Source: Promethearchaeota archaeon (GTDB lineage Archaea > Asgardarchaeota > Lokiarchaeia > Sigyniarchaeales > SOKP01). Taken from it: DNA of 18,549 nucleotides. Shown here in pieces: positions 1-17,616 of this stretch; position 1 is the first letter of the stretch, and each line of letters starts with the position of its first letter. The DNA lies in assembly GCA_048938895.1 (NCBI GenBank), contig JBHLLU010000067.1, positions 1 through 18,549 of the forward strand, given 5' to 3'. Made by a program: the position numbers and the translations under genes. Below the pieces are notes generated by a model. It had not been told where the DNA came from and did no database searches. It worked only from the letters and a program-made list of their open reading frames with translations.

Positions 1-1
1 T

Positions 2-865: not shown

Positions 866-989
866 CTTCTCTTCTATTTTATTAGTGCCCGTTATAATAT
901 GGGACTCATGCAATTCAAATCAATAGAGAAATGTTTATTATTTTTCAAAGAGCTTTTCTTAAATATTATCAATTAAGATATTTAAATAT

Positions 990-1010
990 GATAAAAAAGG
1001 AAAAAAAATT
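990..1010 (-). terminator. Oligo-T archaeal-type terminator candidate after the FadH-like gene
   Basis: The minus strand reads TTTTTTTTCCTTTTTT just after the stop at 1012. Confidence 0.4.
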
Positions 1011-1011
1011 A

Positions 1012-3045
1012 CTATTTATCTAGGTTATAGGCTATTTGAAATCCTTCATGTATTGCTTCCATCATCGTTCTTGGTTCTTTACTGTCTCCGATATTAAATA
1101 TTTTATATGATGGATTTGTAGTCTTTACTTTTTCATATAAATCAGTATTACTCTTCACACCAGTTGCAAGGATAAATGTGTCTACATTATCAATTGAATG
1201 GGTTTCTTCGTCTTGATCAGAGACTTTAGTTTTATATTCCAGTGATTTTCCCTCGAATTTTGTAATTTCTGCGCCCAATATTTCATTTATCTGTAATTTC
1301 TTTGAAATTCCTATTAAATATCCCCTTGTAGTACGTCCCACGTTTGTAGCTAGTCTTGGTAATACATCAATTATGGTGACATTTCGATTTCCTTTCAACC
1401 AACGTTTCATGATTTCTTCTTGGGGTATTAATTGATAGAAGCTAAGGAAATGAGCAATATCAGAATTAATGGCTCCTAATTCGGCAGCCCAAATTGCTGT
1501 TTCTAAGCCAGTTCCTCCCCCACCAACTACAACAACGTTTTTTCCAACAACATGATCACCTGCTAAAGCCTCATCCGCAAAGCAGATATCGCTTCCTGTT
1601 GAACCATCTATTCCTGGAATATCTGGTATAGAGAACTTTACACCGGTTGCAAATATAACTGCATCTGGATTAAAATCATCGATAAATTCTAGATTCGCTT
1701 CAGTTGCTAATCTCAACTTTATATGACGATGACGAATTTGCGCTTCATAATAACGCAACATTTCTGAGATATTTCTTCTACTATGTGGAACAGCAGCAAC
1801 TTTCATTTGACCCCCAATAGATTCACTTTTTTCTACTAATGTAACATCATGACCCAAAACAGCAGCGATTCGAGCTGCCTCAAGTCCACCAGGACCACTT
1901 CCAATGACTAATACTTTTTGAGGATTTTCAGTTGTTTTGCTTAAGTCAATATCTCCTTCTTTTGCTGTCATATAATTTCTCATACATACAACAGATCTAC
2001 CACTAAAGATTGTATCGAAGCATCCTTGATTACACGCAACACATTTCATGATATCCCAGAGTCGGTTTTCCCTAGCTTTGTTTGGAAGTTCTGGGTCAGC
2101 GATCAGCCCTCTTCCCATACTAATTGCATCTACTCTTTCATCTCGTAATATTTTTTCTGCAATTAAAGGATCATTTATCCGATTCGCCATAAAAACAGGG
2201 ACCTTCACTTCCTTTTTGATATTTTCACCAAGATATACATATGCCGCTTGTGGTACCATCATAGGAATTTGTGGTATTCTGGTTTCATGCCATCCTCCTG
2301 TTACATTTAGAAATTCTATTCCTGCTTCTTCATAATGTTTGGAAAATACAGGACTTTGTGTCCAATCATTAGAACCTGGAACAAAATCATCACCAGCAAC
2401 GCGCATTCCAACTATCATTTTTCCTCCAACTCTCTTTTTCATCAATTCTATTAGCTCAATTGGATATCTTAAACGATTCTCTAAAGACCCCCCATATTCA
2501 TCGGTTCTCTTATTAGTATTTGGACTTAAAAATTGAGTAATAAGATAGCCTGCACTCCCAAGTAATTCCACTCCATCGAAACCGGCTTTTAATAAACGTT
2601 CTGCAGCTACCGCATGATCTTCCTGTATTTGTTTAATTTCATCAATGGTTAATTCTTTAGGCACTAATCGAGTAAGGTTTGATCTCACAGCAGAAGCCGA
2701 TACCGCACCTTTACCCGCATAATATGCACCTGTATGCATTATTTGTCCCATAACTTTAGCACCATATTTATGTATTTTTTCAGCAAAAGCAGTAAATCCA
2801 GGAATATTTTTATCATCCCCGATATATGGTGTTCCTCCACTATTAGGACTAATTCCTAATCCGCCAATAATAATTAATCCTGCTCCACCCTTCGCTCTTT
2901 TTTCATAAAAGTTAGTGAAAACATCATTAATTTCTCCTTTAGGTGTATAACCCAAACCAAGAGCTGGCATGACAATTCGATTCTTTATCTCCAAATTTTG
3001 AATTTTTAGAGGTTCAAACAATTTAATTAATTTCATTTTTTTCAC
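1012..3045 (-). CDS. fadH: NADPH-dependent 2,4-dienoyl-CoA reductase-like flavoprotein (Old Yellow Enzyme TIM barrel + 4Fe-4S + FAD/NAD(P) Rossmann domains)
   Basis: OYE N-terminus (IKNRIVMPAL), GFDGVELLGSAGYLITQF and GGWHETRIP, which match the FadH catalytic Tyr and His segments. The Fe-S motif is CVACNQGC-x11-C, and there are two GxGxxG motifs (GSGPGG, GGGGTG). The start is GTG 3045 or ATG 3036. Confidence 0.85.
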   Translation of the reverse strand: MKKMKLIKLFEPLKIQNLEIKNRIVMPALGLGYTPKGEINDVFTNFYEKRAKGGAGLIIIGGLGISPNSGGTPYIGDDKNIPGFTAFAEKIHKYGAKVMGQIMHTGAYYAGKGAVSASAVRSNLTRLVPKELTIDEIKQIQEDHAVAAERLLKAGFDGVELLGSAGYLITQFLSPNTNKRTDEYGGSLENRLRYPIELIELMKKRVGGKMIVGMRVAGDDFVPGSNDWTQSPVFSKHYEEAGIEFLNVTGGWHETRIPQIPMMVPQAAYVYLGENIKKEVKVPVFMANRINDPLIAEKILRDERVDAISMGRGLIADPELPNKARENRLWDIMKCVACNQGCFDTIFSGRSVVCMRNYMTAKEGDIDLSKTTENPQKVLVIGSGPGGLEAARIAAVLGHDVTLVEKSESIGGQMKVAAVPHSRRNISEMLRYYEAQIRHRHIKLRLATEANLEFIDDFNPDAVIFATGVKFSIPDIPGIDGSTGSDICFADEALAGDHVVGKNVVVVGGGGTGLETAIWAAELGAINSDIAHFLSFYQLIPQEEIMKRWLKGNRNVTIIDVLPRLATNVGRTTRGYLIGISKKLQINEILGAEITKFEGKSLEYKTKVSDQDEETHSIDNVDTFILATGVKSNTDLYEKVKTTNPSYKIFNIGDSKEPRTMMEAIHEGFQIAYNLDK

Positions 3046-3217
3046 AATTGCTTTTATATTTATTAGATATTACTAGTTTTGAATTTTTAATGAGTTTTAA
3101 ATCTTATAAAAAAAAGAAAATTGTCAAAATAAAGCTTACAGCTAAATAATAAATAGAATTTTTCTATATTCATAGAAATAAAAAGAAAGAATATATTATA
3201 GATATATCATAGAAACT

Positions 3218-4009
3218 TTAGCGAAAGTAAGAATCTGTTCCTTTATCCTCTTGAGGAGGTTGCATGAAATGATCTGCTTGTTTTTTAAAAGACTCAAAAA
3301 CCTGCTCCATTTCTTTTATTTTTTCATTTAATTCCTTGAAATCCATATCTATTGAGAAATAATCCTTAAGTAGGGAAACAAGTGCTTTTGATGAACGTGG
3401 ATCTAGAGTCATAATTGGTAATGGTAAGGTTTCTGCTTGTAAACAAATTCCTGGAGCAAAATTATTTGCACCTGCATATGCGGGAAGAATTCCATTTGCT
3501 CCTGAAATAACACCCCCTTCATGTAGCTTTGTATTTTCAAATTCAAGAAACGAGTCGACAAGATTTTGATCCGTTCCACTTATATATATTAATGGGTCAT
3601 CATGAACAATGTCAGTAATCATCGCCCCGGTACTTAAATACATCTTTATTTTTCCCCCAGTTATTTTATCCATTTCTTCACAAAATATTTTTGAGAACTC
3701 AAAAATTCCTTCGGGGGTTTGAGGTTGATATGTTGCAGTGAGGATAAAAAAATCATTTCCATCTTCTTTTTCTGCGGGTTTATAAAACACTTGTGCTGTT
3801 GGAATTTCTAAAGAACCTTTTTCAACAACCGATTTTGCAGGAAAATCAAAATATTGGAGAGTTAAAAATTCCTCAGCTTTGATTGAATCCTTTATTGATG
3901 TAATAGCTAACTTTGCAACTAAAGCAATTCCTGGAAATCCAACGAGGACAATTGCATTTTTAATATTTTCTGGCTTCAAATCAAATTTTTTTTCGATTTT
4001 TATATACAT
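3218..4009 (-). CDS. PAC2 family proteasome assembly chaperone (PbaA/PbaB-like)
   Basis: N-terminal VGFPGIALVAKLA, ISGANGILPAYA, GICLQAET and DPRSSKALV, followed by a C-terminal coiled coil and an aromatic tail (SYFR). The length of 263 aa is typical. Confidence 0.85.
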   Translation of the reverse strand: MYIKIEKKFDLKPENIKNAIVLVGFPGIALVAKLAITSIKDSIKAEEFLTLQYFDFPAKSVVEKGSLEIPTAQVFYKPAEKEDGNDFFILTATYQPQTPEGIFEFSKIFCEEMDKITGGKIKMYLSTGAMITDIVHDDPLIYISGTDQNLVDSFLEFENTKLHEGGVISGANGILPAYAGANNFAPGICLQAETLPLPIMTLDPRSSKALVSLLKDYFSIDMDFKELNEKIKEMEQVFESFKKQADHFMQPPQEDKGTDSYFR

Positions 4010-4030
4010 TTTTTTTGCGATCCTCTAAAT

Positions 4031-5086
4031 TTATTCATTTAAGAATATAAAACTTTCTCCACAGTTTGGACAAAATTTCTTTGGAATGTGTATCTCATAC
4101 CCGCAAAATGGGCAATAAAATTTCTCAACATTTTGGTTATCAGACTGTTTCTCTGGAATGATAATATTAGATGTTCGAGGTGATGGTAAAAATACTGTAC
4201 CCTCCGATTGATACCTTCCCTGGTATTCATATCCTAGATCTTTTTTAGCTTTAGATGATGCGAATAAGGAAGTCAATAGACAGATAAATAACGGTGCAAG
4301 AAGGATATCAATCAAGTTCCTAAGAATCTGGTAAAGAATAATCATCACATAATTCCTAGTATCTGGTGATAACCATGAATTATAAAGATCTGAACTCGGG
4401 TTTAAGAATAAATCAAAAACTGAAAGATATATCGATCTAACTATGAAAATAATGATAAAATTGAGAACAAACGTAATTAGAATCTTCCAGAAATTTCCTT
4501 TAGCAATTCTACGAGCTTCTGAGATCGGTTTTTGAACATCGTTCATATTATATGTAAACACTAAGAAAATAAAAAAACCAAAAATTATAATTGCTGGAAT
4601 GAATAACATAAATACACTTAATGGTAGGCACACCCCGATTAATAAAATCACTAGGAATATCTTCTTATTGAATGCTGATTTAAATGAATCTCGAATATTC
4701 GTTTCATTCTGCATATATCTATTAAACAAATAATTACTAACCGAACACATTGCGATTGTAATAACAATCGCCCCTATTAGATTTTGAATAAAACCAATTG
4801 CTACAGTTATCAGCAAAAATTTAGTTAATGAATTAAATTCGCTTTCAGTAAGAGTTATATTGTCTAATAACTTTTCCATAATCTCTGCTACATCCACACC
4901 TAAAGAATCAGCATACCATCTTAGGTCTGTCAATGCAAAAATGTCTAAAACGATTAAAATAATTTGAAAAACAGCGAGGGGGATAATTAAGTTTACATAA
5001 TTTTTGGAAAATAGCCTAAATCCCTCTCTAATTATCTCCCCGAAACTTTTATTAGCACTATCAATTATTCTTTGAGATTTTTCCAT
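4031..5086 (-). CDS. Multi-pass membrane protein with C-terminal zinc ribbon
   Basis: About 5-6 hydrophobic segments. SFGEIIREGFRLFSKNY and ISEARRIAKGNFWKIL resemble GDPD-membrane-domain-like families. The C-terminus has CPFCG-x8-FCPNCG. It lies 21 bp upstream of the PAC2 gene with a GAGGA SD-like sequence in the gap, so the two are probably co-transcribed. Confidence 0.75.
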   Translation of the reverse strand: MEKSQRIIDSANKSFGEIIREGFRLFSKNYVNLIIPLAVFQIILIVLDIFALTDLRWYADSLGVDVAEIMEKLLDNITLTESEFNSLTKFLLITVAIGFIQNLIGAIVITIAMCSVSNYLFNRYMQNETNIRDSFKSAFNKKIFLVILLIGVCLPLSVFMLFIPAIIIFGFFIFLVFTYNMNDVQKPISEARRIAKGNFWKILITFVLNFIIIFIVRSIYLSVFDLFLNPSSDLYNSWLSPDTRNYVMIILYQILRNLIDILLAPLFICLLTSLFASSKAKKDLGYEYQGRYQSEGTVFLPSPRTSNIIIPEKQSDNQNVEKFYCPFCGYEIHIPKKFCPNCGESFIFLNE

Positions 5087-5104
5087 ATTAATCTGTAAAA
5101 AAAT

Positions 5105-5140
5105 AAGTTATTTATAATTTTTTAGATAAAGTTTTAATAA
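5105..5140. promoter_or_regulatory. Divergent archaeal promoter region (TATA-like boxes)
   Basis: On the minus strand, AAAAAATTATAAATAA lies about 25-30 nt upstream of ATG 5086. On the plus strand, GATAAAGTTTTAATAA lies upstream of 5205. The AT-rich background lowers specificity. Confidence 0.35.
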
Positions 5141-5204
5141 TCGATTTATTCATTACTATAGAAGGTATATTCTCAGATAAGAATTATTACATGTTTAAAA
5201 GTTT

Positions 5205-7091
5205 ATGTTTATTAAAAAGCAAGCATCTCGTCAAATTCCTGGAATAATCTCCTATCTCGATTTCTTTCAATCTAAAAAACTAGCTTACTCTACTTTTTTC
5301 GGCACTCCCGTTGTTTTAGGCCTATTATCCTTGCTTTTTAATTATATAATGATAAATGAATGGGATTTTTTACACTTTTTTAGATTCGTAGGATTATTTT
5401 TACTTATACCAGGACTAGCAGCAGTTTTTTCTATACTAGTTTATTCAAGAAAATCACCCATTTTACGATTACCTCCCTCAGGATGGTCGATCCAAATGAA
5501 TGCATATTTTGGTGCTGTAATTGAGGTAACCTTTTTGCTTGGACAAATAGTCGCAATTGTTCTACAGAATATCTGGTATCAAGAAATGTTTTTGATATTA
5601 GGAACCATCTTATCGTATATTGTGGCTTTTGTAATCTATTTCTCTTTCACTACAGTTGGACGCCCCGGGTATATAATTTTGGCCTTAGTTCAACCTGTAC
5701 TTACAATAATCCTCTATAGTCTTTATATTGGGCAATTTGATAGCGATTTTTTTCTAAGGGCGTTGATATTCTTTATTACATGTGCTCTTATATTTGCAAT
5801 CCCTTATAGAAGAGGATTATTTCAAGTAAGTAATGTCTATAAAGAAGTAACAGGAATGAGCGGGTATCCCTTTATCAGAGCTTTCATTCTTTCTATGATG
5901 ACAGAGGGTAATGATGATCTTATAGAGAGTTTCTTTGAGAAAGTTGGAGTAGAATCTGAGATAAGCATTCAATATATTGCAATAAGAAATATCTCTAATA
6001 AGAAGATTAAAGGATTATTTGTTGTCCCTAATGTTCATTTCGGGCCATTTAAGACCTGTGGGTCTTCTGATCTGCCTGAAAATATTTATAGAACATTTAA
6101 AGAAATTCCTGGAATAACTGTATATCATACAACAAATGATCATTCTCAAAATCTTACAACTCAAAAAGATGTAGAAATCGTGCTTGATCGAATAAAAAAA
6201 GATATACAAGTGATAAGCAACAGCAAAGAGATTAAGTGGACCCCTGAAATTAATAACTTTACAAGAAAAATATCGAATTCTGCTAAACTTCTTGGTACAG
6301 AGATTTCAAGTATCCCAGTTATATTTATAACTAGACACCCTCTTCCTTCAGACGATATTGAATCAGAAATTGGTGATTATATTAGAGAATATGCAAAATC
6401 ACGCGGATACCAAGATATTATAATTATTGATTCCCATAATTCAATTCTTACAGAAGAATTTTTAATTAAAAAAGAATCTATTGAAGCTTCAGATCTAATT
6501 AATGTTTCAAAGAAGTTCCTTAAGAGTAAAAAAATCGATAATTCTCAAAAAGTTCAGATGTTATATGGTATTGCTAAAGGCACATTTGGGAATTATTCAG
6601 AAAAACAGGGGATTGGTTTTGGGGGCATTGTTGTTCATCTATTGAAGAATTCAATAAACGAACAAACAACTGCCTTGATTCATTTCGATGCAAATAACGC
6701 TTATGTAGATATCCGATCAAATATCCTTAACATGTTACAGAATATAGGAATTGAAAGAGGAGAAGTAACAACTTCTGATTCACACACAGTAGCAAGACAA
6801 TTTTCTGCAAGGGGTTATTCTCCTATCGGTGATAAAATAAAAAATGAGGAAATTTTAGAAAAGCTAGATCTTCTAATCCAAGAAGCAGAATCTAATTTTG
6901 AACCTGTTGAATTCTGTTATTTCAGTTCTACAGAAGATAAAATCAAGGTTTGGGGGAATTCCTTATACTTTGATGCAATTATTGATACACTCAAAGAAGC
7001 TATAAGGGTATCACAACGTTTACTTACATTGAGTTTGATTGTACCTGCTTTCTTCTCATTGATAATTTTATTCTTTCTCTATAATATCTAA
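5205..7091 (+). CDS. DUF2070 family membrane protein (predicted metal-dependent lipid hydrolase, neutral-ceramidase-like)
   Basis: About six N-terminal TM helices, then the motifs HFGPF-x2-CGSSDL, HTTNDHSQN, IDSHN, FDANN and TTSDSH, then a C-terminal TM. The length of 628 aa is typical for archaeal DUF2070. Confidence 0.85.
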   Translation: MFIKKQASRQIPGIISYLDFFQSKKLAYSTFFGTPVVLGLLSLLFNYIMINEWDFLHFFRFVGLFLLIPGLAAVFSILVYSRKSPILRLPPSGWSIQMNAYFGAVIEVTFLLGQIVAIVLQNIWYQEMFLILGTILSYIVAFVIYFSFTTVGRPGYIILALVQPVLTIILYSLYIGQFDSDFFLRALIFFITCALIFAIPYRRGLFQVSNVYKEVTGMSGYPFIRAFILSMMTEGNDDLIESFFEKVGVESEISIQYIAIRNISNKKIKGLFVVPNVHFGPFKTCGSSDLPENIYRTFKEIPGITVYHTTNDHSQNLTTQKDVEIVLDRIKKDIQVISNSKEIKWTPEINNFTRKISNSAKLLGTEISSIPVIFITRHPLPSDDIESEIGDYIREYAKSRGYQDIIIIDSHNSILTEEFLIKKESIEASDLINVSKKFLKSKKIDNSQKVQMLYGIAKGTFGNYSEKQGIGFGGIVVHLLKNSINEQTTALIHFDANNAYVDIRSNILNMLQNIGIERGEVTTSDSHTVARQFSARGYSPIGDKIKNEEILEKLDLLIQEAESNFEPVEFCYFSSTEDKIKVWGNSLYFDAIIDTLKEAIRVSQRLLTLSLIVPAFFSLIILFFLYNI

Positions 7092-7101
7092 TTTTTTTTC
7101 C
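7092..7101 (+). terminator. Oligo-T terminator candidate after the DUF2070 gene
   Basis: TTTTTTTTCC directly after the TAA at 7091. Confidence 0.4.
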
Positions 7102-7175
7102 AAAAAGATAATTCAAGATTTATATAATTCATGCTCTTAATTTTTATTTATACAATAAAAAAAATTGGTAAACTC

Positions 7176-7901
7176 ATGTCATTAAGTTTTTTAGACACAT
7201 TAAATGGAATATTTTCACTAGTTTTTGTAGCCATCTCCTTATTTGTTGGTTTTATAATACTCTCTCGATATTTTAAATATAGGGAAAGGGTATATTTTTT
7301 AGTTGGGATTACCTGGGTGTTAATAGCATCCCCATGGTGGCCATCAACCATATCATTTATAGTAGCTTTATCAAATGATGTTGGAATTACCCCAGAGCTT
7401 TATTTTCTAATAGGAAATTTATTGGTCCCGCTAGCAGTCATCCTATGGTTATTGGCTCTAACCGAATTCCTTTACACAGAAAAACGAAAGTTGATTCTTT
7501 CAGTTTTTTTAGTAATTGGTTTAATCTTTGAGGTCTTATTTTTAACTTTTCTCTTCTTGAATTCAGATTTCATTGGGGAATTGAATGGACCTGTAGATGT
7601 AAATTATAAGTCTTTTATTATGATCTTCCTTATAATATTCCTTCTTATCGTTGTAGTTACTGGGTTTCTTTTTGCAAATCTTTCTTTAAAATCTGATGAT
7701 CCCGAAGTAAAATTAAAAGGTAAATTGCTAGTGATTGCCTATATAACCTTCTCCATCGGGGCATTATTAGACTCATCTATTCCTTTGAATGAAGCGTTAA
7801 TCATAATAACCAGGCTAATATTAATAACAAGTTCGTTCTGTTGGTATGCTGGCTTCTTATTACCAAGATGGTTAAAAAAATATCTATTGAAAAAGAGATA
7901 A
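7176..7901 (+). CDS. Stand-alone seven-transmembrane protein of unknown function
   Basis: Seven hydrophobic segments counted by eye, basic loops after TM1, TM3 and TM5, and a basic C-tail. ATG 7176 is preferred over 7131 because the extension is AT-rich, intergenic-like sequence. Confidence 0.75.
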   Translation: MSLSFLDTLNGIFSLVFVAISLFVGFIILSRYFKYRERVYFLVGITWVLIASPWWPSTISFIVALSNDVGITPELYFLIGNLLVPLAVILWLLALTEFLYTEKRKLILSVFLVIGLIFEVLFLTFLFLNSDFIGELNGPVDVNYKSFIMIFLIIFLLIVVVTGFLFANLSLKSDDPEVKLKGKLLVIAYITFSIGALLDSSIPLNEALIIITRLILITSSFCWYAGFLLPRWLKKYLLKKR

Positions 7902-7995
7902 TCTTCCTAATTTCGCTATATTACTTAGATATTATCTGGATTCTTATTATTTTTCAATCCATTGTTTCTTAATAATTCATTTAAAGTCATATATA

Positions 7996-8520
7996 GTGAT
8001 GCTAAGTACAGAAATCGATAAATTGGTGAAAATAACTCTTATTGGAAGCCCGGCTGTAGGTAAAACAACTATAGTAAAATTATTATCTGAAAACACATTA
8101 GATAGATTTTATATGCCAACTCATGGACTAGATTTAAAATCTATAAAATTAGATGAATATTTCTTAAGATTATGGGATTTAGGAGGACAAAATAGTTATT
8201 TAAGGACATATTCAAAGGATTATTTACTTGGATCCGATATCATTTTTATTGTAACTGATTCCACACCTAGTAATGTATTAAATTCAAGGGAGTTAATTAA
8301 TTACGCATGTCATTTTGTGGGAAAAGAATGTCCAATCATCGCGATCGCAAACAAACAGGATTTAAAAGATGGTAGAATGAATGCTAAAAGGGTTGAGGAT
8401 CTATTGCATGTAAAAACATATGGACTAACAGCTATAGATCCAGCGGAAAGATTGAAATTAATGAATATCATCAAAAATGAATTAGAAAAAATTGCCATTA
8501 GGAGGGGATTAAATAAATGA
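7996..8520 (+). CDS. Small GTPase of the Ras superfamily (Arf/Rag/Roc-like, Asgard type)
   Basis: G1 GSPAVGKTT, G2 PTHG, G3 WDLGGQ, G4 NKQD and G5-like LTA. The start is GTG 7996 or ATG 7999. There is no N-terminal MG myristoylation motif and no C-terminal CAAX. Confidence 0.92.
   Translation: MMLSTEIDKLVKITLIGSPAVGKTTIVKLLSENTLDRFYMPTHGLDLKSIKLDEYFLRLWDLGGQNSYLRTYSKDYLLGSDIIFIVTDSTPSNVLNSRELINYACHFVGKECPIIAIANKQDLKDGRMNAKRVEDLLHVKTYGLTAIDPAERLKLMNIIKNELEKIAIRRGLNK
8500..8507 (+). promoter_or_regulatory. SD-like site for the translationally coupled 8517 gene
   Basis: AGGAGGGG about 10 nt upstream of the ATGA start/stop overlap at 8517-8520. Confidence 0.45.
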
Positions 8521-9077
8521 ATTTTAATGAAAAGGAATTATTTGGGGCTGCTTTAATTGGATTTGATATGATTGATGGCCCCTTTCTTAAATGGAAAAAG
8601 GAGTATAATAAAACAGAAGACATGGTAAAGTTAGATGATTTTGCGATGAATTTTTATCTTGCTTTCCGTGGGGGCAATGCCTCAGGAAAGAAACCTAGAG
8701 CCATATTATATGATAATTTTTATATTGTCGCTTTTCCAAGGGATTTAGAATTATGTTGTCTCTTCATGAAACCTCAAAACCTTGATGAAAATATTAAACA
8801 ATTGAATAAAGTAGCTTCAAGGATAATCACAGAGATGGAAATCAAGGAAAAACCTGAAGCTGAAGTACCTCCAGAGTCAGATGAAAACACCATAGAAGAA
8901 ATAATGAGACTGATTCCAAACATATTAGCAGAAGCTAAAATGTCAACTCCAGAATTGAGAAGATATTTTAAATTGAGTAATTCTCAAATTTGGAAAATTA
9001 TGTCTGAATTAGAAAATGCTAAAAAAGTTAAACGTGCAGACAAGAAGGGTCGTTCAGTTATGTGGACTGCAGTATAA
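8517..9077 (+). CDS. uDENN/longin-like domain fused to a C-terminal winged helix-turn-helix
   Basis: The N-terminal AALIGFDMIDGPFLKW matches the hhhhF-x4-GP hairpin of uDENN/longin proteins. An acidic Pro-rich linker (EKPEAEVPPESDE) follows. The C-terminal MSTPELRRYFKLSNSQIWKIMSELENAKKVKR...GRSVMW has a wHTH pattern. The gene overlaps the GTPase stop (ATGA). Confidence 0.65.
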   Translation: MNFNEKELFGAALIGFDMIDGPFLKWKKEYNKTEDMVKLDDFAMNFYLAFRGGNASGKKPRAILYDNFYIVAFPRDLELCCLFMKPQNLDENIKQLNKVASRIITEMEIKEKPEAEVPPESDENTIEEIMRLIPNILAEAKMSTPELRRYFKLSNSQIWKIMSELENAKKVKRADKKGRSVMWTAV

Positions 9078-9115
9078 AACTTAGATTCTCTTCCATTTAT
9101 CTATAATTTTTTATT

Positions 9116-9931
9116 TTATCTTGTTCTATGATCCCAACCGTGTTCTTTTGTATAAAGACGAGAAAACATAATATAACAGATGTCAGGCAACTCTTTTTCT
9201 AAATTATTTACAGTTATAAATCGAAGAATATGATTTAATACAAAAATACCTATAAATTCAGCATGATAACTTCCCAAATTGGTTTCTAATTTTTCACCAT
9301 AGAATTTTATATCTAAACCATTTTCTTTTTCCCAAGTAATTTCTATAAAGATTTTTGGAAAGATTTCTCTTTTTATGCGCCAGCCATTAACAGTCTTCCA
9401 TACTTTAGCTCCAATGAAACTCTCAAGCTTTTCTTTATCTTCTTCTTGTAAGAATTTGAACGGACTAGCTCTCTGTAATAATACTTTTTGCATCAATTCT
9501 GATTTTGAATCATAGTTTTTCTCAAAGGGTTCTTCTCCTTTTAGTTTTCTTTCAATAAAATCTATAACTATATCGATAAATGTTGCACTATCTTCACCAG
9601 GAACCCAAGTAACATGCTTTCCTGTAAAATAAAACTTAAATTCTGCCTTAATGCCATCTCCGAATTCGTCGCCAAAATAAGAATAAGTCATATGTATATT
9701 TACTTCGGGAAACATTTCCATTGTAATAGTCCAATCCTCGTTGAATCCAATATTTTCAACCTTTCCTCCCAAATAATTGTTTACAATTGCCTCGAGAGTC
9801 TTTAAATCAATATTCATGAAGCTAGAATATTTAGCTTTACTAATATCCTCTAACTCTTTCTCATGGGGTCCTCTTACACCCGTAGCATCAATTTGACCTA
9901 TGGTAAAGAATTTTCTATTTTCAATTGTCAT
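9116..9931 (-). CDS. Hypothetical protein with internally duplicated DUF3786-like domain
   Basis: MFPEVNIHMTYSYFGDEF...FKFYF resembles the DUF3786 'FPxVP..W.GDEEF..ILF' segment. A second copy reads IFPKIFIEITWEKENGLDIKFY. Confidence 0.55.
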   Translation of the reverse strand: MTIENRKFFTIGQIDATGVRGPHEKELEDISKAKYSSFMNIDLKTLEAIVNNYLGGKVENIGFNEDWTITMEMFPEVNIHMTYSYFGDEFGDGIKAEFKFYFTGKHVTWVPGEDSATFIDIVIDFIERKLKGEEPFEKNYDSKSELMQKVLLQRASPFKFLQEEDKEKLESFIGAKVWKTVNGWRIKREIFPKIFIEITWEKENGLDIKFYGEKLETNLGSYHAEFIGIFVLNHILRFITVNNLEKELPDICYIMFSRLYTKEHGWDHRTR

Positions 9932-10052
9932 TTAAAATAGTTCACATAAATTATAAGTATATATTATTATTTCCCTTTTTTTTTGAATTTTCCTATGTAA
10001 AATCCTTAAGTGTATTGGACTAAAGGAAATAATCTTCCAGTTTCAGGTAAAT

Positions 10053-10080
10053 TAATAAAAAAATAGAAAAAAATAAAAAA
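10053..10080 (-). terminator. Oligo-T terminator candidate after the 1121-aa gene
   Basis: The minus strand reads TTTTTTATTTTTTTCTATTTTTTT, starting about 10 nt after the stop at 10090. Confidence 0.45.
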
Positions 10081-10089
10081 TTATAATAC

Positions 10090-13000
10090 TTATTGAATTT
10101 CTACGGGAATTATCATCCCTTTTCTCTTTAAAGAGATGATAGTACTAATAATTTCATCTCTAGAAGCTTTTCTCCCAGCTAAACCAAAATTCAAAAGACT
10201 TGAGACAAAAAAGAATTTTCTCTCTTTCTGTATTTGCTCAGCCACTTCTGTTAGATCCTTTTCTAAACCTTTCAACTTTATTACTCCATAATGTTTTCCT
10301 AATTGAAGGGGATATACAAAGGTTACATTGAAATATTTTTCAATTAAATCATCAGTTGTTCTAAATTCAGTAATGTCACCACTAAAGGATTCCAAACTAG
10401 ATTTATATCTACTTTCAAAAGATTCGGTAAAAGCAATTTGACTTTCTTTCAACTTTTCAGAAGGAGTACCATCCAATATCAACGCAACTCGTACATAATC
10501 TCCATCATTAATTATGATCTTAAAATCATAATAATCCATTTCAAAACCTTTACCTTTCTCTGTACTTACTGACCCTTTTTTAATTTCTGTTCGAAAATGT
10601 GAGATCGCCTGTAAAAATCCTGAGATTAAATCAGAATCAATACCTTCTAAAGAAATCTGTTTATCATATATAGAAACACCACTATTCTTTTCGATGATCA
10701 TAATATATGCTATCTTTAGAAGATCATCCAAAATTTTGGCTTCCCCTGCCCAGAATCTTCTCTGTCGAGAATGTTTAACCGATCTTATAGATACAATTGC
10801 TACGACTGCAGTTACACCTCCTATTATATAGGGTAAATATCGCATTAATGAATCCATGAAAAGAGTATATTCTGATACAACCTTTATATAATCCGATAAA
10901 ATTTCTGCGCTGGTGTATATTCCCGCTTCTGCATATCTTACACGTATAGTAAAGTGTTTACCGGTATTCTCAAATTTTAATTGAACTGTAGCAATTCCCT
11001 GATCATTTGTTATAGAAGTCGATTCATATATTGTCAAATTATTTGCATTTAACACTTCAAAAATAATCTCAATATTATCTAATGGTACTCCGCCTGATTC
11101 AAACGCTCTAACTAGAAAGGATCGAGTACCTGTCATATACTGTTTTGCAGGACTTTCTATAAATTCCAGGAAAGGTTGAATTTTAAATAATTCATAAGTA
11201 CCATTGACGTCAAAACGTATGGAATGCCATTTTGATGTCACATTAAATTCGAAAAATCCTTGAGAAATGTCAGCATAATCGATATCAGCTTCCCATATTC
11301 CTTTGCCAATTCCATTGTCAATTACATTAACTCCAAAATTTTGTAAACCTATATCTGACGCGGTTAATGTATTACTATTGATACCTAAACCAAGTGATGA
11401 AGAAATATCTGAGGATATTGCATTTTGAATGTACATGTTAACGCTAAATTCATTAATTGAAACATTAAACTGATAATCAGCAGATTCATTTGTAAGATAA
11501 ATTAACACAAAATTAGCTTCATTATTTAGCGACTCATTTAATATATTTAAAAAAATCCATGTGAAACCAGCATCAAAAGGAAGAACAATTGTTGTCTCAT
11601 TCTCAAGTTCAAATTCTCTATAATCACTCATTAAGATCCAATCCCCTTTATTTGTTTCCTCGTCAAGAATATCAAATTGGATATCACCTTTATAAAGGGC
11701 TAATGCCGCAAGAGTAAGATTATTCTGGACACTTACATTTGAGGTAAGCCTTATATCCATTAAGGGTAAGATAGGATTTGGATAGGATGCAATCCAATCA
11801 TAATAATCCACATCCCAAAGAGAACTATCTAGATCCTCCAGAACATTATACGTAAAGAAAAATGTCAGATTGTTGCTTAAGGCTTGCGCCTCATAATAGA
11901 CTTCATCATTAAATTGGAGAGATTCAATAGTTTGGCTCCCAAATGGAACAGTTGTACCATTTATAATATTTACGTTATTAGAAAAATATAATTCTTGAAT
12001 GAGAGGATCATGGGGTTGAATTGTATCAAGATTTGCTAATTCTCCCACCTCGACTTTAAACTGATTTATTGATACATTAAAATCGTTTCCAGTACCTAGA
12101 TATTCAAGTTTGAATTTAAGTGTATTATTTTGTGCAGGATAAAGTGGATTATTACCCATATATGAAAGGATAATAAATTTCTCCAATGGGTCCCTAATAG
12201 AGAAATAGATAGTTGTCTCTGCATCGTCAATAATGTCATATTGAAGAGGTATCCACTTAGGATTCAAGCCGATGGCTTTATAATTATATATTGAAATATT
12301 GGCAGATTTTATTATTGCTTCATTACTCACATTTATAGTAAGATAAAAGTCAAAACTAAAAATATATTTATAATGATCAAACCACCAATTAAAATCTGGT
12401 TTGCCAATAACTGGATAAAATTGTTTGTAGATTTCTCGAAATAACTCCCAATATGTATAAGGTGAATTTTTTAATTCTTGAAGTTCGAAAGTAACTTCAA
12501 TTGTAGCATTATTTGCATCACCAGCAATATACCTATCACTATCAATGTTTTTGAAGGAGTTAGTATCACCTTTATAATAAGTCCCATTTGTCGTTGATGA
12601 GCTTATTACATTATTTACAGTATAATCGTCAAAATAGAAATCTGGTGAAATTGCGAATGTAGCACCTTCTCCAATGTCACTTGTATCTTCACCATCTGGG
12701 TTAAAGTAAAGAAACTTTGGTCCACCACCGCTAATTGAATCATCCTGAGGTATTTTTATTCTAAATGCAAACCAATATTTCTCTGTACCATGCTCTATTG
12801 TTATATTAGTATTTGAAGTATCTAAGTAAATTGGACCTGAACCAGAATTTTTAAAATCAAAGACTTCCCAGTGAGCAGCATAGACGAGTGGATGTGGTTT
12901 CACGAGAATTCCCAAGATTTCTTCTGTATTGGGTGTACCTGTATTTGTACAATTCACAATTGCAACTTCCCATGAATTTTCATCAGTAAAAGAAACAGGA

Positions 13001-13455
13001 TTATTAATATCTTGAATAAGAACACTAACATTGTTGATATATTGATTAATTTCTACAGAAAATTTTTGAAAAATATATTTTGGACCCTCTCCAGAGCTAG
13101 TTATAAATTCTGAGAAATCATCTTCTATATATCTTGTATAATTAATCGCTGTTATGTTCTCAAAAGACATTTTCGCATGAGATATGTTATAATTAGGAAT
13201 ATAAATTTCAGGTTGAGTATTTAATCCTGGAAGTTCTCTATTTATATAGCAGTCTTCATTGATAAGGGTCGTGTTACTAAAAATTTTTCCTGTTCTGTTG
13301 ATTGCTTGAGGATAGAGAATGTGATTGTCATCCTGCGAATAAGAACCTTTGAAACTGAGTATACTGGAGGTATAAATAGGTGCAATTGAGAACGTAATAA
13401 GAAAAATCATTAATAGAACTCTATTCCTAAAAGAAATCATTTCCTTAGACCTCAT
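10090..13455 (-). CDS. Large single-pass cell-surface glycoprotein with cytoplasmic longin-like domain and C-terminal wHTH-like tail
   Basis: N-terminal signal/TM (RNRVLLMIFLITFSIAPIY), then about 840 aa of beta-rich ectodomain with more than 20 N-x-S/T sequons. An Ig-like (Big_1-type) segment GVPLDNIEIIF...TNDQGIATV precedes the TM YLPYIIGGVTAVVAIVSI and a basic stop-transfer. A longin pattern follows (IMIIEKNSGVSIY...DSDLISGFLQAISHF...F..RY...L..F.GDITEF), ending in IISTIISLKRKGMIIP. Confidence 0.8.
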   Translation of the reverse strand: MRSKEMISFRNRVLLMIFLITFSIAPIYTSSILSFKGSYSQDDNHILYPQAINRTGKIFSNTTLINEDCYINRELPGLNTQPEIYIPNYNISHAKMSFENITAINYTRYIEDDFSEFITSSGEGPKYIFQKFSVEINQYINNVSVLIQDINNPVSFTDENSWEVAIVNCTNTGTPNTEEILGILVKPHPLVYAAHWEVFDFKNSGSGPIYLDTSNTNITIEHGTEKYWFAFRIKIPQDDSISGGGPKFLYFNPDGEDTSDIGEGATFAISPDFYFDDYTVNNVISSSTTNGTYYKGDTNSFKNIDSDRYIAGDANNATIEVTFELQELKNSPYTYWELFREIYKQFYPVIGKPDFNWWFDHYKYIFSFDFYLTINVSNEAIIKSANISIYNYKAIGLNPKWIPLQYDIIDDAETTIYFSIRDPLEKFIILSYMGNNPLYPAQNNTLKFKLEYLGTGNDFNVSINQFKVEVGELANLDTIQPHDPLIQELYFSNNVNIINGTTVPFGSQTIESLQFNDEVYYEAQALSNNLTFFFTYNVLEDLDSSLWDVDYYDWIASYPNPILPLMDIRLTSNVSVQNNLTLAALALYKGDIQFDILDEETNKGDWILMSDYREFELENETTIVLPFDAGFTWIFLNILNESLNNEANFVLIYLTNESADYQFNVSINEFSVNMYIQNAISSDISSSLGLGINSNTLTASDIGLQNFGVNVIDNGIGKGIWEADIDYADISQGFFEFNVTSKWHSIRFDVNGTYELFKIQPFLEFIESPAKQYMTGTRSFLVRAFESGGVPLDNIEIIFEVLNANNLTIYESTSITNDQGIATVQLKFENTGKHFTIRVRYAEAGIYTSAEILSDYIKVVSEYTLFMDSLMRYLPYIIGGVTAVVAIVSIRSVKHSRQRRFWAGEAKILDDLLKIAYIMIIEKNSGVSIYDKQISLEGIDSDLISGFLQAISHFRTEIKKGSVSTEKGKGFEMDYYDFKIIINDGDYVRVALILDGTPSEKLKESQIAFTESFESRYKSSLESFSGDITEFRTTDDLIEKYFNVTFVYPLQLGKHYGVIKLKGLEKDLTEVAEQIQKERKFFFVSSLLNFGLAGRKASRDEIISTIISLKRKGMIIPVEIQ
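11432..12630 (-). repeat. Two diverged ~190-200 aa tandem domains in the ectodomain
   Basis: Unit 1 runs NNVISSSTTNGT...SFKNIDSDRY...FKLEYLGTGNDFNVSINQFKV. Unit 2 runs NNVNIINGT...SLQFNDEVYY...FVLIYLTNESADYQFNVSINEFSV. Confidence 0.6.
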
Positions 13456-13582
13456 TTTTTTATTCTTTTTCTTTAAATTAAATAATAACTTTAGTTACAA
13501 ATGAAAAAATGCACTTTTAAAACTAGTTTTTCTAATGTAATAGAGGATGTGGAAAATAATTAAACTATATATACTAAATTCG

Positions 13583-14842
13583 TCATTTATGAAAATCCTT
13601 ATACTGCTTCACAGTTTTTCTTATTAAATCTTCTAGATCTTCTTCAGTGATGAATTTATCCTTAATAACTATAGAATGAACTTCTCTCATAATTTCGTCG
13701 ATATAAGTTTCATAATTAGTTAACTTCATCTGTTCACATTTCATCTTAATAGCATCACCATGAAGCGTAGTAGGACCAAAAATAATTTGTTCCTTTTGAC
13801 CAACGATTTCTGGTTTATATGGTGTAAAGCACATCCAGTACTTATCTTTTTCTAAAGCACTCATAACGTGAAGTTCGCTTTCATGTATAAAGGTATTCCG
13901 CCCTACGATTGGCTTATTATATGGGAGAGGAACTCCTGAAATTTTCTCAATATATTTACTAAGATCATATAGTTTAGAAAGATCTATTCCTGTGTCTATT
14001 CCATATAACATTTCTAAAGTCACAACTACTTCCTCAAATGATGTATTCCCAGCTCTATCTCCTAATTTATTAACTACGAGATCCATATATGAGGCTCCTT
14101 GTTCAACAGCAACTATGGTGGAAGCAGTACCTAATCCAAAATCATCATGAACATGGATGCCAAGCGGGATGTCATCTGCAATCGGTATAAGTTGTTTAAT
14201 GAGAAATGAAATTGCAGATACATTACACGCACCCACAGTATCATAGAGCATTATCATTTTTACCCCATGTTTTTTTCCTTGTTCGATTGCTTTCTTTACA
14301 GTTGCTATATCAGATCGGGTTGCATCAACGCAGTCCAAAATGGCATTAGCACCTAATTTTTTGATTCTACTTAACATAGAAGGAATTAATGAGACAATAA
14401 CTTCAGGTGTTATTTTAGTATCTCCTGTAAATAGTTGTAATTGCCATTCTGTTAAAACTATTCCAAAGCCAATATAATCTATTCTTGCTTCTATTGATTT
14501 TTCAATTTCAGCCGTCCATCTTGTAGGATTCGAACTGAGATGAGAATATGTCTTTAGATTAAGTCCTAATTCTTTAATTTGATATGCTAGATCCCATTGA
14601 TCTTGAACTTGTCCAATATACCCACAATCTACATGTCTAATTCCAATATCTTCTAATTTTTCAACAATTTTAGTCTTTTGATCTAAATTGTAATAGACTC
14701 CAGGTGTTTCTTCACCTTCTCTTATGGTTGAGTCTCTTACATAGACCTTTTCAGGTAGATTGAAAGATTGGAGCACTTCCTCCTCATAATTAAAAGGTGA
14801 GATCCACCATTTATTGTTAAACCATTTTGTTTCTTTTTTCAT
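13583..14842 (-). CDS. DRE-TIM metallolyase, LeuA/homocitrate/citramalate synthase family, without C-terminal regulatory domain
   Basis: RDSTIREGEETPGV (active-site helix), LYDTVG, metal-binding HVHDDFGLG, LGDRAGN and PIVGRNTFIHESELH. The length of 419 aa is too short for the LeuA allosteric domain. Confidence 0.85.
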   Translation of the reverse strand: MKKETKWFNNKWWISPFNYEEEVLQSFNLPEKVYVRDSTIREGEETPGVYYNLDQKTKIVEKLEDIGIRHVDCGYIGQVQDQWDLAYQIKELGLNLKTYSHLSSNPTRWTAEIEKSIEARIDYIGFGIVLTEWQLQLFTGDTKITPEVIVSLIPSMLSRIKKLGANAILDCVDATRSDIATVKKAIEQGKKHGVKMIMLYDTVGACNVSAISFLIKQLIPIADDIPLGIHVHDDFGLGTASTIVAVEQGASYMDLVVNKLGDRAGNTSFEEVVVTLEMLYGIDTGIDLSKLYDLSKYIEKISGVPLPYNKPIVGRNTFIHESELHVMSALEKDKYWMCFTPYKPEIVGQKEQIIFGPTTLHGDAIKMKCEQMKLTNYETYIDEIMREVHSIVIKDKFITEEDLEDLIRKTVKQYKDFHK

Positions 14843-14892
14843 TTTCGGAGCGTTTTTTTATTTTATTAACTTATAATGCTTGTATTGCATAA

Positions 14893-14910
14893 AAAACTAT
14901 TAATAGTTTT
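14893..14910. promoter_or_regulatory. Perfect 18-bp palindrome between divergent genes (bidirectional BRE-TATA promoter or operator)
   Basis: AAAACTATTAATAGTTTT is its own reverse complement and is centred about 60 bp from both start codons (14842 and 14965). Confidence 0.55.
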
Positions 14911-14964
14911 CTAAGATTGACTCTCAATATGAGGAATAATACTATTCTAAAGGAGTAGATTATT

Positions 14965-15723
14965 ATGTGGTTGATTTTATTAATTTGGATTGTTATCATA
15001 TTTGTTTCTACAATTTTTATAAGTCAGTATATCAAAATTCAAAAAAGAGAAGATGTCGCAATAGCTTTTTATGTTTTATTTCTAGCAATGTCTCAAATCC
15101 TAGCTGCTAAAATTGGAGATTTTAGCATTGGGAATTACACAATAACTGCACCAGTGGCAGTTCTCATATTTCCCTTCACATTCCAAATAACCGATATAGT
15201 AAACCAAAATTTTGGTCAAAAGGCAACTCATAGGATGATTTTCATTGCCTTTATTACCCAAATATTTATGACAATTTTTATCTGGTTCGGTATTGAAGTA
15301 AGAAGTGCTCCTTTTTGGGGATTTGATTTTGGAAGTGATCCAGTCGAAGCTCAGAGATTTTGGACCAACTTTCTTGGTTCCACAGTAAGAATAACTGGAG
15401 CATCTTGGATTGCATTCCTAATAACAGAAAATCTTGATGCTTTATTATTTGCTAAATTAAATAAGTTTACGAAAGGGAAGCACTTATGGTTCCGAAATAT
15501 ATTTAGCGATGTTCCTACTTTAGCATTAGATAGTCTAATATTCGTATCGATTGCATTTGGGGGTGTATTTCCTATATGGGAGGTTATATGGGGTCAAATT
15601 TTAACAAAATGGTTTTTTGGGGTTGCTGATACTCCTTTTATGTACTTATCTAGAGCTATAACTAGTGATAAAATTCACATTTTAGAAAATTTGTTTGGTT
15701 TACAAAAAGCAAAAAGTAATTAA
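14965..15723 (+). CDS. yhhQ: Queuosine/7-deazaguanine precursor transporter (YhhQ/VUT family)
   Basis: SQILAAKI, LIFPFTFQITDIVNQNFG, RITGASWIAFLITENLD, LWFRNIFS, LDSLIFVSIAF and DTPFMY all match YhhQ-family motifs. An SD-like AAAGGAG lies at 14949-14955. Confidence 0.88.
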   Translation: MWLILLIWIVIIFVSTIFISQYIKIQKREDVAIAFYVLFLAMSQILAAKIGDFSIGNYTITAPVAVLIFPFTFQITDIVNQNFGQKATHRMIFIAFITQIFMTIFIWFGIEVRSAPFWGFDFGSDPVEAQRFWTNFLGSTVRITGASWIAFLITENLDALLFAKLNKFTKGKHLWFRNIFSDVPTLALDSLIFVSIAFGGVFPIWEVIWGQILTKWFFGVADTPFMYLSRAITSDKIHILENLFGLQKAKSN

Positions 15724-15751
15724 AAAAAAATATTAGTTATTTTATTCTAAA

Positions 15752-16621
15752 TTATTTTCTTTTCATAATAACATAAATAACGCAAAATATAGCTCCAAAA
15801 CTGATACCCAAAAGGATTGGAATCTCAAAGCCTGGTATTTGAGCTTTAGATGGAAGAGATACTTCAAACTGATAAATTGTTGCACTTTCATTATCCTTTA
15901 AAGTATATCTTATAAATGCTCCATAAACACTGTCATATTCCCAAGTTGCACTATAATCATTAATAAAAACAAGTCCATCAGGTGGACCATCATATGTGAT
16001 TTCTAATCCGCTAACAGACCAATTTTCATCCCAAATCATATCAGCCAAGTAATCTGCGGCATCTACTGGTAATTGAGTAAGATAATCAGCAGCCGCGTGA
16101 TACTGTAAAGTACCAAGATCCTGCCAAATAGCATACATAGAAACATTCATTCCAGGTACAAATACTGGACCAGGAATATAATAACCAAGACCGCATAATA
16201 TTTGAAGATGAGACGGATTGTATAGTGTGGTAACATTAATAGCGGCAATATCTGGTGTATTACTAAATGAACCAGCAGTCCAATCCCAGTATTTTGTTTC
16301 TACTATAAATGCATTCATATCCCCAGCACCTACATTAATCGTTTCGTTTGGATATACACCAATTATTACTGCTTTATTTCTCGCTCCAGTAACATTACAT
16401 CCCACTCCAAAACTTGCTTCTAGACTATCACTCCAACTCGCACCCATGGTTTTAACCAAACCATCAGGATCTACAGTTGTAACTTTGAGTATTTTTGAAC
16501 CGCCTAAAGTAGCGGCACATTGAAATGTGGGGTATTGAGCCTTCGTAATTGGATTAATTGCAAAAATCATTAAAAAGAAAAATCCAATCACTAAATATTT
16601 TGATTTCTTCATAATTTTCAT
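15752..16621 (-). CDS. Exported surface protein with IPGF-TM-basic C-terminal sorting signal (PGF/Loki-CTERM type)
   Basis: Signal peptide MKKSKYLVIGFFFLMIFAINPITKA and C-terminus IPGFEIPILLGISFGAIFCVIYVIMKRK. Confidence 0.8.
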   Translation of the reverse strand: MKIMKKSKYLVIGFFFLMIFAINPITKAQYPTFQCAATLGGSKILKVTTVDPDGLVKTMGASWSDSLEASFGVGCNVTGARNKAVIIGVYPNETINVGAGDMNAFIVETKYWDWTAGSFSNTPDIAAINVTTLYNPSHLQILCGLGYYIPGPVFVPGMNVSMYAIWQDLGTLQYHAAADYLTQLPVDAADYLADMIWDENWSVSGLEITYDGPPDGLVFINDYSATWEYDSVYGAFIRYTLKDNESATIYQFEVSLPSKAQIPGFEIPILLGISFGAIFCVIYVIMKRK

Positions 16622-16797
16622 CTAATTTTTTTTGATCAGTAATTATTAATAGATTTAACGATTGATATTATTATTATATGAATATATAAATGTTATTCAA
16701 TAATTCAAGGATTCTATATAATAATCTGTTAAGAACGAATAATTAAGTTATAATTGATTAATATATTTAATATAAGATTTTAATTTTTGATACAATA

Positions 16798-17574: not shown

Positions 17575-17616
17575 AATAATATTAACTTTTTGTATTAACT
17601 ATTTTTCAATATAATT

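Follow-up and report, generated by a model that had tools for sequence, protein, structure and literature searches.

An Arf-like GTPase gene translationally coupled to a longin–winged-helix gene: a conserved pair and candidate regulatory module in Lokiarchaeia

What would a small GTPase do when its gene is coupled to that of a protein predicted to join a longin domain to a winged helix-turn-helix (wHTH)? This question is raised by a two-gene locus in an 18,549-nucleotide (nt) stretch of Promethearchaeota archaeon DNA (assembly GCA_048938895.1, contig JBHLLU010000067.1, positions 1 to 18,549 of the forward strand), which is called the window here. The window is AT-rich Asgard DNA, and two open reading frames (ORFs) on its forward strand fill 7996-9077. 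The first encodes a GTPase of 174 amino acids (aa) at 7996-8520, with a GTG start and an ATG one codon on. The second, at 8517-9077, encodes the longin-wHTH protein of 186 aa, hereafter the partner. A first-pass annotation of the sequence had noted an ATGA overlap and a Shine-Dalgarno (SD)-like site between the genes, and both were read directly. The ATG of the partner lies over the TGA of the GTPase gene at 8517-8520, an arrangement of translational coupling, and AGGAGGGG lies at 8500-8507, inside the 3' end of the GTPase gene and 9-16 nt ahead of the partner start. No SD-like word was found before the GTPase start in the sequence read upstream of 7996.

The coupling and the pair itself are both conserved. 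Among 80 related loci, taken from species-representative genomes, the GTPase stop and the partner start overlap as NTGA in 75 (start 4-mer ATGA in 45, TTGA in 28 and GTGA in 2), and an SD-like word precedes the partner start in 74. In 79 of the 80 loci a same-strand GTPase ortholog is the immediate upstream neighbor of the partner, and the single miss is at a contig edge. The orthologs are 57-93% identical; their ends lie 0-17 nt ahead of the partner in 78 loci, and in the remaining one the distance is 68 nt. Since the 80 loci share wider synteny (a 271-aa ORF in 77, a DUF2070 gene in 67 and others in fewer), the count of 79 is not independent evidence when taken alone. The pair is also adjacent in 118 of 121 loci that hold the partner, again not an independent set, as it contains 96 unique partner sequences and some genomes are counted twice. 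Fifteen distant loci were examined as well. Fourteen had a partner homolog, the GTPase was directly upstream in 10 of these 14, and at those 10 no other neighbor from the window was detected within ~3 kb. This persistence of the pair where other synteny is lost is the strongest argument that the two genes form a functional pair, and the earlier expectation that the pair would be kept across related genomes therefore held.

To determine how widely the partner occurs, 400 genomes of the phylum were searched with a profile. Hits came from 122 of 134 genomes in its own family, from 18 of 19 in the order's other families and from 7 of 7 in the class's other families. The pair is nearly universal in Lokiarchaeia. 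The loci include closed single-contig genomes of the same order, and the partner gene is single-copy in its own genome. Elsewhere in the phylum, the partner was found in families f28 (3/5), f29 (1/1), f10 (1/1), f11 (3/4), f20 (5/5) and f21 (5/6), while in most remaining families hits were absent or weak.

The upstream gene encodes an Arf-like small GTPase. Pfam Arf matched it with an E-value of 1.4e-18 and 67.4 bits, compared to a cut-off of 22.3, with Roc and Ras coming next. Its best solved relatives are Arl3 (3.6e-15), Arl2, Arf1 and the Asgard Arf GTPase 8oul (6.6e-11). The intact G1-G4 motifs described in the first-pass annotation were all read, namely GSPAVGKT (17-24), T42, DLGGQ (61-65) and NKQD (119-122), and they are conserved across the unique orthologs. 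G22, K23, T42, D61, G64, N119, K120 and D122 are present in 91 of 91, W60 in 90 and Q65 in 89; the WDxGGQ G3 motif is thus of the Arf type. Arg37 of switch I is not conserved (65/91). Since Gln65 is kept and there is no conserved switch-I arginine, the GTPase looks dependent on a GTPase-activating protein (GAP). It has a complete catalytic set including Gln65, with no conserved intrinsic arginine. A defining feature of the Arf family is an N-terminal amphipathic helix (bioRxiv 10.1101/2024.02.28.582541). Only 11 residues lie ahead of strand 1 in the window GTPase, and the more distant orthologs (L114, L123 and L124) have almost no N-terminal extension. The Rag-type logic that had been suggested for the pair found no support in the GTPase, which is Arf-like and not Rag-like by both its Pfam match and its best solved relatives.

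The partner has 493 homologs at E ≤ 1e-3. The best 120 of these are 183-189 aa long and 73-97% identical, and they are named hypothetical or, in one source, biotin operon repressor. The homologs are numerous, yet their range is narrow, with 28 representatives at 50% clustering among 1.8 billion proteins. Sequence searches of Pfam, NCBIfam and the PDB gave nothing of note for the partner, and no Robl_LC7, Longin, Sybindin or similar family in Pfam at E up to 0.1. A PDB sequence search with the family profile gave nothing significant (best LmuA, 0.015, and an Lrs14-like wHTH, 0.11). Fused, longer forms of the partner were found in 0 of 385 candidates, which is weak evidence.

Structure prediction was more informative for the N-terminal domain (aa 1-111, 8517-8849, forward strand). 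The full-length AlphaFold2 (AF2) model had a predicted local distance difference test score (pLDDT) of 79.8, and the N-terminal domain alone reached 81.6 with a predicted TM-score of 0.74. DSSP assigned strands 8-17, 21-29, 62-64, 69-75 and 78-84 and helices 39-51 and 89-111 in the two AF2 models (bb-a-bbb-a), with the last helix ending at 110 in the full-length model. In a structural search with VIA, the leading matches were MglB (1j3w_C, Z 10.3, root-mean-square deviation (rmsd) 2.9 over 105 aa), MglB complexed with MglA (3t12_C, Z 10.2), TRAPPII (7u05_D, Z 10.1), TRAPP (3cue_A, Z 9.9), a Lokiarchaeal longin dimer (8yqg_B, Z 9.7) and roadblocks of the cultured Lokiarchaeon (Z 9.5-9.9), along with synbindin, LAMTOR and Fuzzy-Inturned. 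All 50 VIA matches listed belong to the longin/roadblock superfamily, with Z 8.5-10.3 over 92-105 residues. Foldseek E-values were weak (best 5.4e-3), and the matches were still to the same superfamily, including the GATOR1 chain 9o5a_C. These Z-scores, tied within 1, settle the fold but do not discriminate between subfamilies. On these models, the predicted N-terminal domain has the longin/roadblock fold. The proposal that the protein opens with a longin/uDENN domain stands as far as this fold goes; no profile link to NPR2 or folliculin was found.

A low-confidence acidic linker follows at aa 112-122 (8850-8882, forward strand). Its pLDDT is below 50 at residues 111-120, and residues 111-125 have a pI of 4.05, with six D/E and one K/R. 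The remainder of the protein (aa 123-186, with the stop codon at the end of 8883-9077, forward strand) is predicted to be a basic wHTH with a pI of 10.1, in which helices 123-139, 144-151 and 155-167 are followed by strands 171-177 and 180-185, i.e. three helices and a beta-hairpin wing. VIA gave Z 10.1 to PH1932 (2cwe_A) and to NolR bound to DNA (4omy_A), with rmsd 1.6-2.2 over 60-62 aa, and also matched HlyU, SmtB and Zalpha. When 20 members of the partner family were searched against Pfam, HTH_11 matched in seven (best 7.3e-8), HTH_DeoR in three (1.3e-7) and the ArsR-type HTH_5 in two (1.1e-7). The models and the matches in relatives agree with the original assignment of a wHTH to the end of the second gene. 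In one lineage (L114, family f10, 1462-1857, reverse strand), the N-terminal domain is followed by about ten arginines in place of the wHTH, and the GTPase is still directly upstream.

The next matter was how closely the partner resembles NPRL2, to which its architecture had been likened. The partner reads ...LFGAALIGFDMIDGPFLKW at residues 8-26, so the hydrophobic strand and GP hairpin described for its N-terminus are there. Gly21-Pro22 (8577-8582, forward strand) lie in the beta1-beta2 hairpin, at the start of strand 2 in the AF2 models (strand 1, 8-17; strand 2, 21-29). D17, G21, P22, Y47, F50, G53 and P60 are present in 96 of 96 unique partner sequences. In the available text of PMC12290439, the GP motif of FLCN, NPRL2, SMCR8 and C9orf72 sits before or at the start of strand 2, the motif marks the catalytic longins of folliculin, GATOR1 and C9orf72-SMCR8 apart from other longins, and some Asgard longins carry it together with an arginine finger. 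An arginine finger from FRGG or KKPR had also been anticipated here. Arg61 of KKPR (8697-8699, forward strand) lies in the loop that leads into strand 3 and is the obvious candidate, and any catalytic role for it is inferred. It is frequent (88/96) but, like Arg51 (87/96), not invariant. With the GP motif in 96 of 96 sequences, the partner matches the description of GP-motif longins among GAPs and Asgard proteins in the available part of PMC12290439, and with Arg61 in 88 it may match their arginine finger as well.

Other comparisons tied the partner less closely to NPRL2. PF06218 (NPR2) had no match in the partner, its relatives or its own genome, and among the 400 genomes of the phylum it gave 0 matches above the cut-off and three weak ones, although long profiles may miss weak matches. 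Foldseek ranked the GATOR1 chain 9o5a_C fourth to fifth (E 3.5e-3 to 7.3e-3), tied with LAMTOR and AP-3. With the two-domain model, 183-193 columns were aligned to the GATOR1 chains 9o5a_C, 9o5d_C/D and 9o5a_H, with probabilities of 0.95-0.99, E-values of 3.5e-3 to 1e-2 and an rmsd of ~17. A lead from an atlas pointed, with a score of only 0.79, to a cluster in which 19% of the members have NPR2. Chains of folliculin, SMCR8 and C9orf72 were not among the Foldseek and VIA matches listed for either model, which does not exclude them. By Z-score, the structural neighbors were led by the MglB and TRAPP longins, not by GATOR1. The NPRL2-like architecture was recovered in its modeled order, longin then wHTH.

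Contact between the two proteins was examined by complex prediction with two copies of partner residues 1-115, the GTPase, GTP and Mg. The three runs scored 0.53, 0.57 and 0.45, with a median of 0.53 that falls in the weak band, and the best of three controls scored 0.00. In calibration, 58 of 80 solved complexes passed the mark, as did 2 of 110 mismatched pairs; passes at or below 0.60 came from only 7 of those 80 and from both mismatched pairs that passed. Our own alignments and the ligands riding along differ from the calibration set-up. The runs agreed in at least 88% of contacts, and the partner had a pLDDT of at least 83. Since similar complexes have been solved (MglA-MglB and TRAPP-Ypt1), the pass may reflect memory. 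The prediction thus lends weak support to the suggested binding of the GTPase by the partner.

A candidate DNA target was found upstream of the operon. The motif GATATTATCTGGATTCTTAT (7928-7947, forward strand) is conserved in the upstream regions and is a candidate operator or upstream activating site. When up to six mismatches are allowed, its 21-nt consensus GATATTATCCAGATTCATATT, written in short as GATATTATC..GATTC, is present in 65 of 77 loci, with a perfect copy in 17, and its median start is at -68 from the GTPase start codon. The flanks further upstream are not conserved, and most of the remaining 12 loci have a related variant of the motif in the same place. Within the motif are a GATA-T-TATC palindrome and, spaced 11 nt apart, two AGAT words. 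The window's own genome contains one perfect copy, along with 90 sites with at most three mismatches compared to 48 for the reversed control. The single perfect copy makes the motif a candidate private operator, to which the wHTH might bind. Ahead of 10 distant operons, within 120 nt of each, the word GATAWTAY occurred eight times compared to 0.54 expected, and 0 of 2000 shuffles reached eight, for a pattern that was widened after sight of these sequences and with two of the 10 loci being close kin. The only inverted repeats in 7880-8010 were two 9-nt AT-rich pairs with no clear meaning. Closer to the gene, TTTCTTAATAA (7965-7975, forward strand), ~21-31 nt before the start codon, is a likely B recognition element (BRE)/TATA element. 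Its position at about -31 to -21 would fit the TATA box of a leaderless or short-leader mRNA. TTTCTTAA, TTCTTAAT and CTTAATAA recur in 23-28 of the 77 upstream regions, with medians of -31 to -28. A check for expression among 20 listed runs found no RNA data.

We propose, tentatively and with a little less than even confidence, that the locus encodes a translationally coupled, autoregulated module in which the longin domain binds the GTPase, the wHTH binds DNA and the state of the one is coupled to occupancy by the other. The N-terminal domain of the partner, probably as a homodimer platform like those of MglB, Ragulator, TRAPP and GATOR1, would dock on the GTPase at its switch face. On the longin domain, conservation would be highest at the surface formed by the FD-x3-GP hairpin with the GG...KPR loop, and the domain would either stimulate hydrolysis in the manner of a GAP, with Arg61 as the finger, or read the nucleotide state. 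The basic wHTH, tethered by the acidic linker, would bind DNA, and its likeliest target would be the motif ~68 nt upstream of its own operon. In this way DNA occupancy would be linked to the state of the GTPase, and the module would regulate itself. The GTPase-gated transcription switch suggested at first is, like GAP or GEF activity and DNA binding, a hypothetical property of such a module. Every top structural match of the N-terminal domain is a known GTPase-binding platform; for the wHTH, DNA-binding families are matched both by its fold and by the Pfam hits of relatives. A bolder form of this proposal, which we regard as improbable, is that the pair forms a minimal, homodimeric forerunner of the GATOR1/folliculin GAP and reads out the nucleotide state of the GTPase directly on DNA, with the partner binding its own operator, together with a small regulon, in just one of the GTPase states, and that the winged helices of NPRL2/NPRL3 are relics of an ancestral DNA-binding output.

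Several observations weigh against the coupled module. Most of the 80 related loci belong to close kin with wide synteny. The complex score is in the weak band, as stated. Pfam longin, Robl_LC7, NPR2 and folliculin were not among the 25 families listed for 20 family members at E up to 10, and the wHTH of the window's own partner protein reaches no Pfam cut-off, its best match being FtsK_gamma (E 0.01, 16 bits compared to 30.6). Eight of the 96 unique sequences have L, M, K, Q or V in place of Arg61 and nine have another residue in place of Arg51, which is unusual for a catalytic finger. The wHTH domains of NPRL2/3, ESCRT-II and cullins bind proteins, not DNA. Four other families (f11, f20, f21 and f32) have N-domain-only homologs of 112-150 aa without an adjacent GTPase. 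In two of these families (L132, 1498-3229, and L133, 1501-3419), the best GTPase ortholog (161-162 aa, E 3e-60 and 8e-59) keeps VTDSTPKNVL and NKQD and does not adjoin the longin homolog. It is followed there by a same-strand OB-fold protein (Pfam RMI2, 1.2e-6; tRNA_anti-codon OB, 6.7e-7) and then by a PCNA-like ORF of 254-258 aa, whose PCNA identity was assigned by eye.

The linkage and fold evidence serves equally well for a pure GTPase regulator, in which the longin would be a GAP or a guanine nucleotide exchange factor (GEF) and the wHTH a protein-binding or dimerization module, as in NPRL2/NPRL3, ESCRT-II and cullins, with no DNA output. Npr2/Npr3 likewise have a longin ahead of winged-helix domains in the available text of PMC3521125, and Foldseek aligns both domains to GATOR1 chains, with the high probabilities and the large rmsd given above. 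This explanation is harder to reconcile with the DNA side of the locus. Family members match HTH_11, DeoR and ArsR at 7.3e-8, 1.3e-7 and 1.1e-7, the wHTH is strongly basic, a poly-Arg tail stands in for it in one lineage and a conserved operator-like motif goes with the operon. We consider a pure regulator unlikely, though less so than the explanations that follow.

Another possible explanation is that the partner is a one-component transcription factor, whose longin/PAS-like domain would respond to a small molecule or to some other protein, while the GTPase, as a regulated target or an unrelated neighbor, would only be co-transcribed and make no contact with it. The longin fold belongs to a PAS-like/profilin-like class of ligand-binding domains (PMC3521125, available part), and both the N-domain-only homologs that lack an adjacent GTPase in four other families and the weak complex score would suit such a sensor. 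It does not sit well with the conserved start/stop overlap and the keeping of the pair where all other synteny is lost, nor with close structural neighbors that are every one a GTPase platform or with complex-prediction controls of 0.00. We regard a lone sensor as about as improbable as the bolder form of our proposal.

The OB-fold and PCNA-like neighbors of the GTPase ortholog in two other Asgard families raise the further thought of a nucleoid or replication positioning module, in which the GTPase would be a spatial switch with MglA-like or ParA-like logic and the longin-wHTH protein a DNA anchor. The very high conservation of both proteins and the poly-Arg tail that can replace the wHTH are in keeping with an anchor. 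The OB/PCNA neighborhood was seen in only two loci, though, with the PCNA identity assigned by eye, and the private conserved promoter motif fits autoregulation better, leaving a positioning role slightly less probable still. An anti-mobile-element defense system of the MglA/MglB-like/wHTH type, suggested by the profilin-longin-like-wHTH fusions and MglA/MglB-like/wHTH-ABC systems listed as candidate immunity in the available part of Li, Burroughs and Aravind (bioRxiv 10.64898/2026.10.19.760177), is very improbable, since the partner is single-copy, is present in 122 of 134 same-family genomes and 7 of 7 from the class's other families, keeps a stable syntenic position and has PADLOC matches only at E 0.004 or weaker.

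The neighbors of the operon were also inspected. A T-rich spacer (9078-9115) separates the partner from a convergent gene and is the probable end of the two-gene transcript, with a putative terminator role. The convergent 271-aa ORF (9116-9931, reverse strand) adjoins the pair in 77 of the 80 related loci and was not found at the distant loci; it had no Pfam or NCBIfam family, only a weak DUF6985 match (E 0.011). Upstream, on the same strand as the operon, 5205-7901 encodes a DUF2070 membrane protein (Pfam 1e-89) and a 256-aa protein with multiple transmembrane (TM) segments. The DUF2070 gene is present in 67 and the multi-TM gene in 46 of the 80 related loci, the latter missing from one subgroup, and neither was linked to the GTPase-partner pair at the distant loci. 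Further downstream, 10090-13455 (reverse strand) encodes a 1121-aa protein with an N-terminal signal or TM segment, a large, presumably extracellular part that is rich in N-x-S/T and weakly matches the Ig-like Big_1 (2.1e-5), then a TM helix and ~230 aa of cytoplasmic tail, in which Pfam found nothing. By eye, its C-terminal 236 aa had resembled a longin plus wHTH, but hhalign against the partner family showed no relation (probability 0.2). At the poly-Arg locus, L114, the pair adjoins a PF0610-like wHTH/zinc-ribbon protein (Pfam 3.3e-12 and 5.7e-12), and the sister family L113 has the same neighborhood with no GTPase. Some records that are 74-84% identical and have the same synteny (L007, L008, L013 and others) are labeled Thorarchaeota, Hodarchaeota, Hermodarchaeota or Odinarchaeota, and L047 is labeled Nanopelagicaceae bacterium; all of these taxon labels look unreliable.

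How does the pair compare to known systems? Operons of a GTPase and a roadblock protein (MglAB) have long been known and are widespread in archaea (PMC3521125, available text). As in MglA-MglB operons, a small GTPase and a partner of the roadblock/longin fold share one operon here, and MglB is the top neighbor of the N-terminal domain. Unlike MglA, the GTPase is Arf-like (WDxGGQ, with the catalytic Gln) and has no conserved switch-I arginine, and unlike MglB, the partner lacks the N-terminal helix and has the GP motif and the wHTH fusion. NPRL2/NPRL3 of GATOR1/SEACIT, which is a GAP for RagA/Gtr1, share the GP-motif longin followed by a winged helix and the arginine before strand 3, as far as the available parts of PMC3521125 and PMC12290439 describe them. 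Npr2/Npr3 are a longin with a winged-helix triad (PMC3521125, same part), whereas the partner is 186 aa long with one wHTH, no intervening domains and no Pfam NPR2. In further contrast to NPRL2/NPRL3, the GTPase here is Arf-like and not Rag, the partner presumably forms a homodimer where they form a heterodimer with DEPDC5, and the wHTH resembles prokaryotic DNA-binding families.

Among Asgard proteins, the FLCN/SMCR8-type GP-motif longins of PMC12290439 (2025; 15 sequences) share the GP motif and a nearby arginine with the partner. The available text of that study leaves open which GTPase partners these longins, whereas here a conserved operon names the GTPase and a wHTH is fused to the longin. 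The longin domains of certain asCOGs were described as similar to NPRL2 by Liu et al. (bioRxiv 10.1101/2020.10.19.343400), and one asCOG with an NPRL2-like C-terminal domain is present in most Thor and a few Loki metagenome-assembled genomes; the available part of the preprint reports no GTPase operon for them, in contrast to the operon here. Ragulator-Rag, TRAPP-Ypt1/Rab1, Mon1-Ccz1-Ypt7 and Fuzzy-Inturned-Rab23 share the fold and the logic of a dimer platform for small GTPases, but those platforms are GEFs or scaffolds of multi-subunit eukaryotic complexes and, unlike the partner, have no GP motif or wHTH. The ParA-wHTH systems in the available text of bioRxiv 10.64898/2026.10.19.760177 also fuse a longin-like domain to a wHTH, alongside the gene for a P-loop NTPase. 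Their NTPase is ParA (SIMIBI) and their proposed role is immunity, whereas the locus described here is core and vertically inherited and has a TRAFAC Arf-like GTPase.

A search of the literature, with the supplementary tables of PMC12290439 and Liu et al. outside its scope, found no description of this exact GTPase/longin-wHTH pair. Since GTPase-roadblock/longin operons and both NPRL2-like and GP-motif Asgard longins are in print, the kind of pairing is known and what is seen here is an unannotated form of it. The pairing is therefore less novel than was first thought, as the longins had already been described in the available parts of bioRxiv 10.1101/2020.10.19.343400 (NPRL2-like) and PMC12290439 (GP-motif).

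The main value of the locus is that it names the cognate GTPase for a GP-motif longin. According to the available text of PMC10933270, the small GTPase genes of the cultured Lokiarchaeon do not generally share operons with genes for roadblock or longin proteins, so that pairs are difficult to assign. The coupled, single-copy and highly conserved pair described here is a clear exception to that pattern and, as such, provides a small, expressible matched set (174 + 186 aa) for testing. With this pair, it could be asked whether GP-motif longins were GAPs before eukaryotes, what role the longin-wHTH fusion has and whether the promoter motif is its target.

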